Virus record (IMG/VR): IMGVR_UViG_3300008261_000059
Span: 57,720 to 77,719 of that record
Reading direction: 5' to 3' (one strand)
Source: an uncultured virus (IMG/VR IMGVR_UViG_3300008261_000059)
Taxonomy: Duplodnaviria; Heunggongvirae; Uroviricota; Caudoviricetes
Length of the DNA: 20,000 nucleotides
How positions within the stretch are numbered: position 1 is the first letter of the stretch; each line of letters opens with the position of its first letter. Position numbers and translations under genes: made by a program. The notes below the pieces were generated by a model. The model had not been told where the DNA came from and searched no databases. It saw only the letters and a program-made list of their open reading frames with translations. Shown here piece after piece: positions 15,248-19,998 of this stretch.

Positions 15248-15416
15248 CTTGTTCGTATGGTTCTTCTAATAGATAAAATTTTTCTTCTTTATTATAGACT
15301 AAAATGTTACTTTGATTTTTAGGAGTGTACCAATCTTTAATCTGACTGTAATAAAAGTCAATCACTTGGTTGTGAGTTAATTCTTTTGCCCAATTTTCAG
15401 ACATCATCAACATCAC
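15234..15416 (-). CDS. hypothetical protein
   Basis: About 57-60 aa ORF filling the gap between two genes. Confidence 0.55.
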   Translation of the reverse strand: MMLMMSENWAKELTHNQVIDFYYSQIKDWYTPKNQSNILVYNKEEKFYLLEEPYEQDDYE

Positions 15417-15820
15417 TTATTCATTTGAAGTGTAGGAACAGGCATACCACCTTCAGTTGGAACATAAATGGTCACATTACCATTCTTGGCACCATCTTCG
15501 ATACCAGTGATATACAGATACTGAAGATACTCACGGTTGTCCTTCAGTGAATCACCGATGATTTGGTTTGCCTTAGCAACACCAGTAGCACGGATGATTT
15601 CAGCATCGGCAAGTTGTTGAGCACTATCTTTCTTTGCTTGTGCTTCCAGAACTGCTACCTGACGAGTATACTCTGCTTTCTGAAGTTCTGCTTTACCAGC
15701 AAGAGATTGTTGCCACACATTATATTGTGGACCACCAATAAAGATGAGACCACCAATTACAATCACACCAACAGAAATAGCAACGATAGCAGGGTCAATA
15801 AATCCGTTTTGTTGTTTCAT
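15413..15820 (-). CDS. SPFH/band-7-like membrane protein
   Basis: N-terminal TM helix; AxA-rich coil AEIIRATGVAKANQIIGDSL..YLQYL..; TIYVPTE tail. Confidence 0.7.
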   Translation of the reverse strand: MKQQNGFIDPAIVAISVGVIVIGGLIFIGGPQYNVWQQSLAGKAELQKAEYTRQVAVLEAQAKKDSAQQLADAEIIRATGVAKANQIIGDSLKDNREYLQYLYITGIEDGAKNGNVTIYVPTEGGMPVPTLQMNK

Positions 15821-17335: not shown

Positions 17336-17363
17336 GAACTTTCTAAAATGAATAATTCTTGAG

Positions 17364-17371
17364 TATTTATA
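17364..17371 (-). promoter_or_regulatory. T4-type late promoter TATAAATA
   Basis: Exact gp55 consensus about 30 nt upstream of an ATG. Confidence 0.7.
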
Positions 17372-17395
17372 AAATAAAAGGGGCATTGCACCCCT
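17372..17395 (-). terminator. intrinsic terminator of the tmRNA gene
   Basis: AGGGGT-gcaat-GCCCCT hairpin followed by a T-rich tail. Confidence 0.75.
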
Positions 17396-17633
17396 ATGTA
17401 AGTTTTGGGTAAGAAGGAAACTTATAACCCCCTCCACTCATTTAGAGTCAAACTGCAACAGGTGCAGACTGACGAGTGAACTTGACGATTTTATTCGCTG
17501 CGTTTGTTTGTTTGTTTGTCCCGTCAACAGATAAGACCTTTATGCCCCGTCGAAACCAGTACATCCCCCTGAAATGGAGATGTGGGGAATCGAACCCCAG
17601 TCCGAAACATCAGAATTCCCATCCTCTTGAACA
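17396..17633 (-). ncRNA. ssrA: circularly permuted two-piece tmRNA (cyanobacterial type)
   Basis: Acceptor piece ...GGACTGGGGTTCGATTCCCCACATCTCCA (ends 17575) precedes coding piece GGGGATGTACTGGTTTCGACGGGG (starts 17568); 7-bp acceptor stem with G3:U70; tag ORF 17448-17501 AANKIVKFTRQSAPVAV*. Confidence 0.93.
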
Positions 17634-17639
17634 CTTTAT

Positions 17640-17668
17640 ATATTACTCTTTTTCTTTCAAATAGTCAA
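17640..17668 (-). promoter_or_regulatory. sigma70-type promoter for the tmRNA
   Basis: TTGACT-17 nt-TAATAT, overlapping the def stop codon. Confidence 0.55.
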
Positions 17669-18083
17669 CAAATAAAACTCCATCTAAATGGTCAATCTCA
17701 TGTTGAACAATTCTCGACAATAAACCATCTACTTTTTCGAAGATTGGTTTTCCCTTTGCGTTTCTATATTTAATCTTTATTGATTCTGGTCTTTTCACAT
17801 TATCAAAAACACCAGGAACACTTAGACATCCTTCTTCAAAATTAACAAGGGTATCACTTTTCCATACTATTTCTGGATTGATTAAAATCCAGTCTTTTCC
17901 TTTATTATCAACAATTATAATTCTTTTACTTACACCAACTTGAGGAGCAGCAATACCAATACCATTTTTCTCTCTCATGGTCTTTGCCATATTAAAACAA
18001 AGATACCTTATGGTATCATCAATATTTGCTACTCTTTTTGCTTTTTCTCTTAAAACCTTTGACCCAATCGTTTGAAGTTCCAT
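17643..18083 (-). CDS. def: peptide deformylase
   Basis: GIGIAAPQVG, EGCLS and QHEIDHLDG motifs; short C-terminus typical of cyanophage PDFs. Confidence 0.96.
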   Translation of the reverse strand: MELQTIGSKVLREKAKRVANIDDTIRYLCFNMAKTMREKNGIGIAAPQVGVSKRIIIVDNKGKDWILINPEIVWKSDTLVNFEEGCLSVPGVFDNVKRPESIKIKYRNAKGKPIFEKVDGLLSRIVQHEIDHLDGVLFVDYLKEKE

Positions 18084-18105
18084 ACTTCCCTACGCAATTG
18101 GTTAA

Positions 18106-18178
18106 TGGAGAATAGGAGACTCGAACTCCTGACCTTGGCCTTGCAAAGACCCTGCTCTACCAACTGAGCTAATTCCCC
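18106..18178 (-). tRNA. tRNA-Ala(TGC)
   Basis: Cloverleaf, GGGGAAT/ATTCTCC stem with G3:U70, anticodon TGC. Confidence 0.93.
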
Positions 18179-18210
18179 GTTTTTTTTTTTATTTAGGATA
18201 AAAATCCTAA

Positions 18211-18292
18211 TATCGATGAGAGGACTTGAACCTCCACGAATTACTTCACTGGAACCTAAACCCAGCGCGTCTACCAATTCCGCCACATCGAC
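18211..18292 (-). tRNA. tRNA-Leu(TAG)
   Basis: Cloverleaf with long variable arm, anticodon TAG. Confidence 0.93.
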
Positions 18293-18295
18293 AAA

Positions 18296-18421
18296 GAAAA
18301 CACCAGACCTTATTCTTCCTGTTCTCAGGAACCACCAGGTAATGGGCAGGGAGACCTTGCAAGGATTTGTACCCCCGAAGTTTGTCCAGCATTTTCAGTT
18401 TGGAAGACCTAGGACTTCCAA
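18296..18421 (-). ncRNA. structured intergenic RNA candidate (possibly manA-motif-like)
   Basis: GC-richer spacer with hairpins TTGGAAG/CTTCCAA and TTCCTG-agaa-CAGGAA, a CCTTGCAAGG palindrome and CTTCGG; family assignment is from memory and unverified. Confidence 0.45.
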
Positions 18422-18493
18422 CTCCCCCACCTCGATTCGAACGAGGAACCTTAGAGTTAACAGCTCTCTGCTCTGCCGTTGAGCTATAGGGGA
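18422..18493 (-). tRNA. tRNA-Asn(GTT)
   Basis: Cloverleaf, anticodon GTT. Confidence 0.92.
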
Positions 18494-18499
18494 ATAAAA

Positions 18500-18667
18500 T
18501 TAACTTTCCTTAGAAAGCATATATTCAACAGTGTTTGCAATGTCATTCATTGCAACTCGTAAATCTGGTTGTTGACCAGTTTCCTGCTTAACGATTGGTC
18601 GGGAATCATCAGTTAATGACCACCTCCACTGACCCATATCTTTACAGTACCAGAGATTTATTTTCAT
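18500..18667 (-). CDS. hypothetical protein (55 aa, MKINLWYCKDMGQWRWSLTDD...)
   Basis: Manually translated; ATGA overlap with the oxygenase. Confidence 0.7.
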   Translation of the reverse strand: MKINLWYCKDMGQWRWSLTDDSRPIVKQETGQQPDLRVAMNDIANTVEYMLSKES

Positions 18668-19275
18668 TTGTTAGAAATATAATCATAATGTGGATGAATA
18701 TGCATAAACATTGTAATTGAGTATCTACCCAATTTTTGATTTAAATACTTTTCATCCATTTTTACTTCAGTAACAGAATGTTTTGCCCAAGAAGGAAACA
18801 TCAACATTGAGTTATTTTGTACTTCAAATGTTTTTCCAATATCATTAAGAATGAGGTCTCCCCCATCAAAATGCTTTGGTTCTTTGAAAAACCAAAATAA
18901 CACTGTTACTGATGCAGAATCAGTATGTGGTTCATAACAATCTGCATTTTCATAATAAGATAATAATGTTTTAGAGTAATTTGTATTTAGCACTGCTCTA
19001 TTTGAATAGTGCAATTGACTATAATCTAATATATAATTATCTAAAACTTTTCTAGTTAATCTCCATAAAGATGTTTTATGTGGATTTGTGTAAAAATCAC
19101 TCACCCAAACACCTTTATTCTTCTTCTTGAAAGAACCATTTTTTTCTGCTGAACCAGTTACTTCTGGACCCTCAAGAATTAATGGATTATTTAAAAAGTT
19201 TAACTCATCAAAAATCAAATCCAATTCGGATTGACTGAAACAATTTTCTTTATAAAGATAGTGAATTGTGTCCAT
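18664..19275 (-). CDS. 2OG-Fe(II) oxygenase (prolyl-4-hydroxylase-like)
   Basis: HTD, F.GGDL, MFPS..KHSVT.V and RYSI motifs; start refined to MDTIHY because the longer frame overlaps tRNA-Pro. Confidence 0.88.
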   Translation of the reverse strand: MDTIHYLYKENCFSQSELDLIFDELNFLNNPLILEGPEVTGSAEKNGSFKKKNKGVWVSDFYTNPHKTSLWRLTRKVLDNYILDYSQLHYSNRAVLNTNYSKTLLSYYENADCYEPHTDSASVTVLFWFFKEPKHFDGGDLILNDIGKTFEVQNNSMLMFPSWAKHSVTEVKMDEKYLNQKLGRYSITMFMHIHPHYDYISNK

Positions 19276-19300
19276 ATAATTAAAAGAAAATTGTTTCAAG

Positions 19301-19374
19301 TCGGGATGATAGGATTCGAACCTACGACCCTCTGTTCCCAAAACAGATGCGCTACCAAGCTGCGCTACATCCCG
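19301..19374 (-). tRNA. tRNA-Pro(TGG)
   Basis: Cloverleaf, anticodon TGG. Confidence 0.95.
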
Positions 19375-19405
19375 AGTTTGTTTAACAATATATGTATATT
19401 GTTAA

Positions 19406-19477
19406 TGGGAAATACTGGATTCGAACCAGTGACTTACCACTTGTAAGGAGGCCACTCTACCACTGAGTTAATTTCCC
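19406..19477 (-). tRNA. tRNA-Val(TAC)
   Basis: Cloverleaf, anticodon TAC; weak anticodon stem. Confidence 0.88.
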
Positions 19478-19552
19478 TGGAGCGAAAGACGAGATTCGAA
19501 CTCGCAACAACCTGCTTGGAAGGCAGGGACTCTACCGTTGAGTTACTTTCGC
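19478..19552 (-). tRNA. tRNA-Gly(TCC)
   Basis: Cloverleaf, anticodon TCC, encoded CCA. Confidence 0.94.
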
Positions 19553-19603
19553 AAATGTTGAGGAATTTCTTCCTCAACTCACTTCCTTCACACGGACTAA
19601 AGA

Positions 19604-19632
19604 AGTGTAAGACAGAATTGAAATTCTGTCAA
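19604..19632 (-). promoter_or_regulatory. sigma70-type promoter inside the tRNA array
   Basis: TTGACA-17 nt-TACACT, overlapped by the inverted repeat GACAGAATT-ga-AATTCTGTC. Confidence 0.7.
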
Positions 19633-19705
19633 GCCCACGGTCGGACTTGAACCGACGACCTACGGTTTACAAAACCGTTGCTCTATCCAGCTGAGCTACG
19701 GAGGC
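19632..19705 (-). tRNA. tRNA-Thr(TGT)
   Basis: Cloverleaf, anticodon TGT. Confidence 0.94.
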
Positions 19706-19725
19706 ATTTTGCTCACAAGGAGCAA

Positions 19726-19810
19726 CGGAAAGGGTGGGATTCGAACCCACGGATGCTTTCACATCGCTAGTTTTCAAGACTAGAGCCTTCAACCACTCGA
19801 CCACCTTTCC
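19726..19810 (-). tRNA. tRNA-Ser(TGA)
   Basis: Cloverleaf with long variable arm, anticodon TGA. Confidence 0.94.
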
Positions 19811-19819
19811 AATATAACA

Positions 19820-19848
19820 ATCATACTATATGTAGCATAGATTGTCAA
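19820..19848 (-). promoter_or_regulatory. sigma70-type promoter inside the tRNA array
   Basis: TTGACA-17 nt-TATGAT just upstream of tRNA-Ser. Confidence 0.75.
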
Positions 19849-19849
19849 G

Positions 19850-19923
19850 CGTTCTCTGGAGGATTTGAACCTCCGACTTCTTGGTTCGTAGCCAAGCACT
19901 CTATTCCACTGAGTTAAGAGAAC
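19850..19923 (-). tRNA. tRNA-Arg(ACG)
   Basis: Cloverleaf, anticodon ACG. Confidence 0.94.
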
Positions 19924-19926
19924 AAG

Positions 19927-19998
19927 CACAGGATAGAGGACTTGAACCTCTACTAAAAGTTTTGGAGACTCTCGTGCTACCAATTACACCAATCCTGC
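19927..19998 (-). tRNA. tRNA-Trp(CCA)
   Basis: Cloverleaf, anticodon CCA. Confidence 0.9.

Follow-up and report, generated by a model that had tools for sequence, protein, structure and literature searches.

Valine-ended tmRNA tags in uncultured cyanophages: a possibly retuned degradation signal

A two-piece tmRNA beside phage translation genes

The window, by which we mean the whole 20-kb stretch of DNA analyzed here, forms the last 20 kb of a 77.7-kb virus record that is rated 37% complete; its G+C content is 37%. Ten tRNA genes (18106..19998, minus strand; ARAGORN, Rfam) lie upstream of a tmRNA gene, in an array interrupted by an ORF with 2OG-Fe(II) oxygenase matches (18664-19341; PHROGs, Pfam), and a peptide deformylase gene (17643..18083, minus strand; Pfam PF01327, 168 bits; phrog_2890) stands directly upstream of the tmRNA. 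The tRNA array, the deformylase, and the tmRNA share one strand, with the deformylase between the other two, and look like a compact translation module. Further ORFs in the window match cyanomyovirus families, including "minor coat protein" (PHROGs), and the coat-like protein shares 32–44% identity with Prochlorococcus and Synechococcus myoviruses. The stretch is present in DNA runs labeled freshwater or lake metagenome from several studies, and four metatranscriptome runs (two studies) contain part of its words. Given the protein and tmRNA matches and the freshwater and lake runs, we take the record to be an uncultured freshwater T4-like cyanophage with a tRNA–deformylase–tmRNA module. The tmRNA itself is part of a virus record, has phage genes as neighbors, and differs from the host copy, as expected of a phage-encoded gene. 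When three RNA runs and one DNA run were compared with the window, short tRNA-like pieces (18102-18178) and one DNA contig (17604-17945) fitted, none of them over the tag. Elsewhere in the window, a 135-residue ORF (15413-15820, minus strand) matches a PHROG "protease" (E 1.8e-52) and, more weakly, a PHROG "lipoprotein"; it has no Pfam match and no link to the tag.

How is the tmRNA gene organized? ARAGORN calls a permuted (i.e., two-piece) tmRNA at 17357-17664 on the minus strand, with the tag AANKIVKFTRQSAPVAV. The Rfam match (17380-17664) spans the full cyano_tmRNA model RF01851 (1-288) with 133.2 bits and E 1.8e-36, where the gathering score is 70, and the tmRNA_permuted model RF04321 scores 87.9 bits against a gathering score of 47; both place the match far above chance. 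The permuted order is present, with the acceptor 3' half first, then a spacer, and then the 5' strand and the coding part (ARAGORN, Rfam alignment). The acceptor piece (17575..17632, minus strand, 5' limit approximate; Rfam alignment) holds the T arm, the 3' strand of the acceptor stem, and a discriminator A at 17575. It is followed by a six-base spacer (17569..17574, minus strand), which in the Rfam alignment is the loop between the two acceptor-stem strands, and by the coding piece (17372..17568, minus strand; ARAGORN, Rfam), which runs from the 5' acceptor-stem strand through the upstream single strand and the tag frame to the downstream helices, up to the terminator. By analogy with the host two-piece tmRNA, the spacer would be removed on maturation; its length differs from copy to copy. 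In the Rfam alignment the acceptor stem has seven pairs, none of them non-standard, and the T arm is intact; the third pair, read from the same alignment, keeps the G3.U70 wobble that is the alanine identity mark. A weak sigma-70-like promoter candidate (TTGACT, 17-base spacer, TAATAT; 17640..17668, minus strand; 9/12 matches in a consensus scan) lies inside the 3' end of the deformylase gene, with a predicted precursor start near 17633, and a similar AT-rich box also precedes other phage tmRNA copies. At the other end, the final helix of the Rfam model (17395-17379) forms, with a T run, an intrinsic-terminator-like hairpin (17369..17395, minus strand; terminator scan). At Rfam gathering scores, the window has no riboswitch match.

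Picocyanobacterial two-piece tmRNA (RF01851; Prochlorococcus, marine and freshwater Synechococcus, Cyanobium, and Vulcanococcus) has the same permuted order, T arm, G.U-wobble stem, 16-residue tag frame, and stop hairpin, and 12 of 16 positions agree between the window's tag and that of Prochlorococcus (ANKIVSFSRQTAPVAA). The window differs from this host RNA in the Val end of its tag, in a compensatory pair in the acceptor stem that leaves the G.U wobble in place, in a promoter-like AT-rich stretch that stands for the 5' helix, and in its Rfam score (133 vs. ~300 bits), a difference due for the most part to this helix. Phage copies more generally lack the first helix of the host model and have an AT-rich promoter-like box there instead (17630-17664, minus strand, in the window; loci L001, L008, and L010).

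Phage-borne two-piece tmRNAs that adjoin tRNA genes and have the same tag front motif are likewise found in the cultured cyanomyoviruses S-CAM1, S-CAM3, S-SSM7/S-SSM6a, S-CRM01, and Sf-FS3 and in the single-cell-associated virus AG-345-P14. When the window's tmRNA is compared with the phage collection at the DNA level, S-CAM1 (72.5% over 87% of the gene), S-CAM3, AG-345-P14, S-CRM01, and S-SSM7 match best. The tags of these phages, however, end in -VAA, -VTA, -AAL, or -ATA, none of them in Val, and several have a front extension of 6–7 residues that the window lacks. Table S1 of Buchholz et al. 2022, which has no tag column, gives the tmRNAs of S-CAM1 and S-SSM7 as "Permuted" (PMC9004378). In its accessible text, the same 2022 survey reports tmRNA genes in 402 of 18,146 phage genomes, with 53 of 133 unique ones being two-piece and mostly aquatic (PMC9004378), whereas a 2014 census, as far as its text was available, had phage tmRNAs only in mycobacteriophages and Bacillus phage G (PMC4131195). 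The OM43 phage Melnitz and the pelagimyophages are also lytic aquatic myophages with complete permuted tmRNAs, but in the available text these are of the alphaproteobacterial type, some accompanied by a riboswitch for glutamine; they have been proposed either to maintain the translation machinery that the phage hijacks or to tag host proteins (PMC9004378). The sections available of a paper on huge phages mention tmRNA and SmpB in general terms only (PMC7162821). Phage-encoded two-piece tmRNA is thus already known. The end of the tag is not a topic in the accessible part of the 2022 survey (PMC9004378), and a full-text search, with most subscription journals outside its scope, returned nothing on cyanophage tmRNA tag ends; we found no published description of a Val-ended cyanophage tag.

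Tag ends in picocyanobacteria and their phages

Read on the minus strand from 17501 down to 17448, the tag codons are GCA GCG AAT AAA ATC GTC AAG TTC ACT CGT CAG TCT GCA CCT GTT GCA GTT TGA, i.e., 17 codons and a stop. The tag and its -VAV end had been proposed in the initial annotation and are exact on direct reading, with ARAGORN giving the same peptide; the (CAAA)4 run that it placed before the tag lies at 17503-17518 (minus strand), directly before two Ala codons. These two codons are both candidates for the resume codon. Tag homology points to the second (GCG), which aligns with the host resume codon in the Rfam alignment and yields a tag of 16 residues, and upstream context points to the first (GCA), with an identical ...CAAAC standing before GCA in loci L011, L016, and L019. 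The choice between them leaves the C-terminus of the tag unaffected.

The frame has an Ala start, the motif A-N-N/K-I-V-x-F-x-R, and an in-frame stop, but it ends in Pro-Val-Ala-Val, not in the host-type Pro-Val-Ala-Ala. Because every host checked ends in -AA, we class the window's tmRNA as a phage variant, separate from the host form. Its last sense codon is GTT (17451..17453, minus strand) where the hosts checked have GCT or GCC; the stop TGA (17448-17450, minus strand) is followed two codons later by a second in-frame stop, TAA (17442..17444, minus strand). In E. coli, the ClpX-type ssrA degron consists of a C-terminal hydrophobic residue and then Ala-Ala with a free carboxylate. With its Val-Ala-Val end, the window's tag falls outside this E. 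coli definition of a ClpXP-type degron.

How do the hosts end their tags? A pattern scan of a genome collection provided a host set of at least 120 loci, 119 of them with a permuted tmRNA call; four calls (three non-cyanobacterial tags and one spurious extra call) stand outside the host count. Among the matches listed, all 115 cyano-type host tags end in -AA and none in Val, and 113 of the 115 are complete, yielding 108 distinct sequences and 12 distinct tags. Host tags among the matches listed are always 16 residues long and always stopped by TGA, the commonest being ANKIVSFSRQTAPVAA, ANNIVRFSRQAAPVAA, and ANNIVRFSRQTAPVAA. This sample is dominated by Prochlorococcus. For the Cyanobium family, a search with the Rfam model matched 131 of 151 genomes, and the loci read from it end in -VAA in 33 of 33 cases (three being genomes already in the first host set). 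Host-clade tags ending in -AV, against which the initial annotation had cautioned, are therefore absent from both sets (0/115 among the matches listed and 0/33).

Three host genomes have a second tmRNA-like match. One of these genomes (G017; contig C8, L376 3688-3982) contains a decayed second tmRNA of 168 bits, 3 kb downstream of the intact gene (298 bits), which is probably the relic of an element inserted at the tmRNA gene. In the other two, the second matches are weaker and partial (94 and 66 bits) and have no cyano-type tag call. We rejected all three as phage-type Val-ended copies, the first being a decayed host duplicate and the others partial.

Phage tags were gathered from six cultured or named phages, 12 viral-contig loci found with a strict pattern, and at least 119 loci found with a looser one; those of the last group among the matches listed have a permuted call in 110 cases and none in nine. 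After removal of duplicates, the viral cyano-type tmRNAs among the matches listed comprise 59 distinct sequences and 35 distinct core tags. Counted by sequence, the last residue among these matches is Ala in 33, Val in 25, and Leu in one; counted by tag, it is Ala in 17, Val in 17, and Leu in one. The last two residues of the 35 tags among the matches listed are TA (nine), AA (seven), AV (seven), TV (six), LV (four), AL (one), and PA (one), so that the -AA of the hosts is kept in just 7/35. Val is encoded by GTT in 19, GTA in five, and GTC in one of the 25 Val-ended sequences among the matches listed. The two positions follow different rules: in the 59 viral sequences among the matches listed, Thr is second-last in 27 and never last, and Val is last in 25 and never second-last, with each of these residues one transition away from Ala. 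Tag length among the matches listed is also free in phages, from 14 to 24 residues against the fixed 16 of the hosts. By contrast with the end, the front of the tag is held constant. Core-tag positions 1, 2, 5, 7, and 9 (Ala, Asn, Val, Phe, and Arg) are invariant in 59/59 viral sequences among the matches listed, even though, in the same matches, Arg9 is written as CGC (32), CGT (17), AGG (nine), or AGA (one) and Val5 with all four of its codons. Invariant residues despite synonymous codon change indicate protein-level purifying selection on the front motif in phages.

Metagenomes were scanned with a window-type 29-base stretch, which gave 84 loci, 39 of them with complete permuted calls. These reduce to 33 distinct sequences, of which 18 end in Val, 13 in Ala, and one in Thr, the last being a dubious call (VKKLN...). 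The dubious call was excluded from the counts, as were the 45 remaining loci (contig ends, one-piece tmRNAs of unrelated bacteria in which the 29-base stretch also occurs, permuted calls running off the locus, and loci without a call). In 28 further metagenome sequences the sole last residue other than Ala, Val, or Leu is the Thr of L266; in this relative, the first tag stop is lost and the tag continues for two residues to the second stop. No cultured phage with a Val-ended tag is among the matches listed; outside these there are six records, one of them at least 99% identical to L147.

Six distinct sequences share the window's tag type (...SAPVAV, where one position is either Gln or His); they are 91–93% identical to the window and in 6/6 cases end in GTT TGA; in addition, the viral contig L018 has a tmRNA identical to the window's. 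A sequencing error would not explain this Val end, given the identical tmRNA in L018 and five more distinct sequences with GTT TGA. Conservation of the terminal Val among phage copies, a check that the initial annotation had proposed, thus holds within the window's own tag type, and beyond it the residue recurs in at least four lineages and with three Val codons.

Is Val an inherited state or scattered noise? We built unrooted trees from the RNA columns outside the tag frame. In a quick tree of 167 rows, all 108 hosts among the matches listed fall on one side of a branch with support 99, and the last residue needs eight changes among phages; strong branches force at least three of these, and the mean after shuffling is ~20. 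In a more careful tree of 105 rows (59 viral sequences, 28 from metagenomes, and 18 hosts, i.e., every sixth host sequence), the hosts lie on one side of a 100/99 branch, and the Val-ended group needs seven changes (bootstrap range 6–8, at least four forced) against a shuffled mean of 31.5. Host contamination of the viral contigs was considered and rejected, as all 59 viral and 28 metagenome sequences lie across the 100/99 branch from the hosts. Val ends have been gained or lost several times in phages and never in the sampled hosts; taking the hosts as outgroup to these unrooted trees, Ala is the likely starting state. Clades in the quick tree hold their state: one is Val-ended in 9/9 sequences, and the S-CAM-type and S-SSM7-type clades are all Ala-ended. 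One sister pair differs at the last residue alone (...RTAVAA vs. ...RTAVAV). A warning in the initial annotation was that -AA ends in related phages would be a sign of drift or sequencing error. Such relatives do exist, namely the S-CAM1/S-CAM3 type (...STVAA) and L017, the nearest differently tagged relative of the window in the quick tree, which also ends in -AA; the conclusion of drift or error does not follow from them, since they form separate stable clades.

Could the Val end still be an error in one contig, or the gene a decaying copy of host origin? The Rfam score of 133 bits, well under the ~300 bits of host genes, would fit a dead gene, as would the precedent of a decayed second copy in a host genome. 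The low score is, however, largely due to a helix that phage copies have replaced, and the gene has compensatory stem pairs, an intact frame, a promoter-like site, and a terminator. An identical tmRNA in a second viral contig, five more distinct sequences with the same end, and the presence of the locus in DNA runs of several studies speak against an artifact. We regard this explanation as exceedingly improbable and close to refuted. What the initial annotation had seen as a possible retuned degron therefore stands in part: the Val end is real, conserved, recurrent, and phage-specific, found in 0/115 host tags among the matches listed, 0/33 in the Cyanobium family, and 17/35 viral tags among the matches listed. 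The part that concerns its effect is taken up below.

What the valine end may do

Neither RNA structure nor base composition readily accounts for the window's Val codon. The stop hairpin, which holds the last codons and the stop of the tag (17447..17473, minus strand; RNAfold on the local stretch), has 5+5 pairs and a 1x1 internal loop, a shape that it shares with the Prochlorococcus hairpin. In both, the loop holds the last codon's second base, which is thus unpaired, and the base is unpaired in 85 of the 108 host sequences among the matches listed, so a C-to-U change would be structurally neutral here, and we rejected structure as the cause of the window's Val. A U at this base could even form a pair with the facing A in the Prochlorococcus hairpin but never occurs there, a sign that cells select for Ala at the level of the peptide. 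The base is paired with G in many other phage copies, as C-G in 29 of 33 Ala-ended and U-G in 8 of 25 Val-ended sequences among the matches listed. Structure may permit only C or U at this base in those lineages, and hence only Ala or Val even without selection on the peptide; RNA pairing may thus be a partial factor there. AT mutation pressure is unsupported as a driver, as the terminal Ala codon of phage tags is GCC in 31/33 cases among the matches listed, despite the 37% G+C of the window.

The explanation that we favor is of a functional phage tmRNA that uses host factors. We searched the window fragment, which at 37% completeness cannot show absence, and four complete genomes (S-CAM1, S-CAM3, S-CRM01, and S-SSM7) for SmpB, ClpP, ClpS, and SspB and found none, which argues that the phage tmRNA must rely on the host for such factors. 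In the infected cell, the two-piece RNA would be charged with alanine by the host AlaRS and would work with host SmpB; ribosomes stalled on broken messages would be freed, and the stalled chain would receive the tag (A)ANKIVKFTRQSAPVAV. The front of this tag would still be recognized as a peptide, and its C-terminal element would follow a phage rule (Ala, Thr, or Leu second-last and Ala or Val last) in place of the hosts' fixed Pro-Val-Ala-Ala. Ribosome rescue would be the phage's need, and the Val end would be kept as a weaker ClpXP-type degron, with tagged products probably cleared more slowly than those that bear the host tag, possibly to the phage's advantage. Taken as a whole, this explanation has, in our judgment, an even chance of being right. 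A second suggestion of the initial annotation, that the phage RNA is a nuclease-resistant substitute for the host tmRNA, drew no support from any analysis made.

Why might a Val end weaken the degron? Engineered ssrA variants (AAV and ASV), made for tuning half-lives, share with the window a C-terminal Val on a ClpXP-type tag; the original half-life paper for such variants is said to be that of Andersen and colleagues from 1998. In Synechocystis carrying engineered tags, EYFP fell in the order untagged, ASV, AAV, LVA according to the accessible part of one study (PMC2860132), and the available text of a review calls the AAV tag slower than the native tag in E. coli (PMC9382460). By analogy, these published data suggest that a Val-ended tag would be degraded more weakly. 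The engineered tags are, however, artificial, are built on an E. coli backbone, and differ at up to three residues and not in the last one alone, and so they are no clean Ala-to-Val test for a cyanobacterial tag. For ...PVAV vs. ...PVAA, such comparisons would fix neither the size nor even the direction of any effect on proteolysis. Val keeps the end of the tag hydrophobic, so ClpX might accept it about as well.

A serious rival is that selection on the degron is relaxed and the last residue flips, nearly neutrally, from Ala to Val and back. Here the phage would need rescue alone, the last codon would flip between GCN and GTN because RNA pairing and a hydrophobic end permit just those, and Val would have no adaptive meaning. 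The near-equal use of the two residues among phage copies (17/35 tags each, among the matches listed), some seven switches, and a sister pair that differs solely at the last residue are what such flipping predicts, and the distal half of the tag and its length are free in phages (14–24 residues vs. 16 in hosts). Pairing at the base in question as C-G or U-G in many phage copies would supply the restriction. In bacteria, tagging-defective tmRNA variants still support several tmRNA-dependent functions, which would make a phage content with rescue easier to imagine. Yet the peptide is not irrelevant, given protein-level selection on its front, and the states are stable within clades (6/6 Val in the window's type, 9/9 Val in another clade, and Ala throughout the clades of S-CAM and S-SSM7 type). 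Pairing sets no restriction in the window, whose hairpin leaves the base unpaired; Thr, although a single transition away and frequent at the preceding position, is never last among the matches listed; and the adjoining silent site shows no AT drift, being GCC in 31/33 cases among the matches listed. On balance we consider relaxed selection somewhat unlikely, though still a serious alternative.

Could the tag instead be read by something other than ClpX? A Val end, with Thr or Leu as neighbors in other tags, might direct chains to a different reader (another AAA+ protease, FtsH, or a C-terminal processing protease), or undegraded chains might occupy the host's tag reader. A retained front motif with an altered end is the arrangement required for such re-routing or titration, the final two residues follow a position-specific rule that resembles a recognition code, and the SspB Pfam model has no match in Synechococcus elongatus (control set), so that the front motif may be read by something other than SspB in cyanobacteria. 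Against this, nothing points to another reader: no phage protease or adaptor of the families searched was found in the window fragment or the four complete genomes, and the "protease" ORF of the window has neither a Pfam match nor a connection with the tag. Re-routing or titration is improbable in our assessment.

Beyond the single tag, the wider pattern of note is that in cyanophages the host tag keeps its front and has its final two residues rewritten. A broader formulation, which we offer as a doubtful conjecture drawn from sequence comparison, is that cyanophages as a group have kept the front motif and replaced the Ala-Ala end (Val last or Thr second-last) repeatedly and independently, such that rescue would proceed with the tagged chains spared, diverted, or occupying the tag reader. 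If so, this would amount to an undescribed viral retuning of trans-translation. The tmRNA tag is a textbook case of a fixed degradation signal; the hosts checked always have Ala-Ala, and phages drop it repeatedly and in a patterned way. Should the Val end alter the fate of tagged proteins, phages would be tuning host proteolysis and ribosome rescue separately, a possibility that bears on the reprogramming of infected picocyanobacteria, which are major primary producers, and that would offer natural graded degradation tags for cyanobacterial engineering. Should the end prove neutral in phages, the contrast with the hosts would be a clean natural experiment, showing that the degron is important for cells and that phages need rescue alone.

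The stretch ahead of the motif also varies among phages. Many cyanophage tags have an extension of 6–7 residues (e.g., ANTSDSA... and AKTDTPA...) ahead of the conserved motif (viral-contig loci L001, L002, L005, L017, and L142-L257), and the window's double Ala may be a remnant of such a front extension. Tags of the S-SSM7 type run for 24 residues from the motif onward and contain a charged insert. The CAAA tract before the resume codon varies in length within the stretch that sets the reading frame, with four copies in the window and three in the five others of its tag type.
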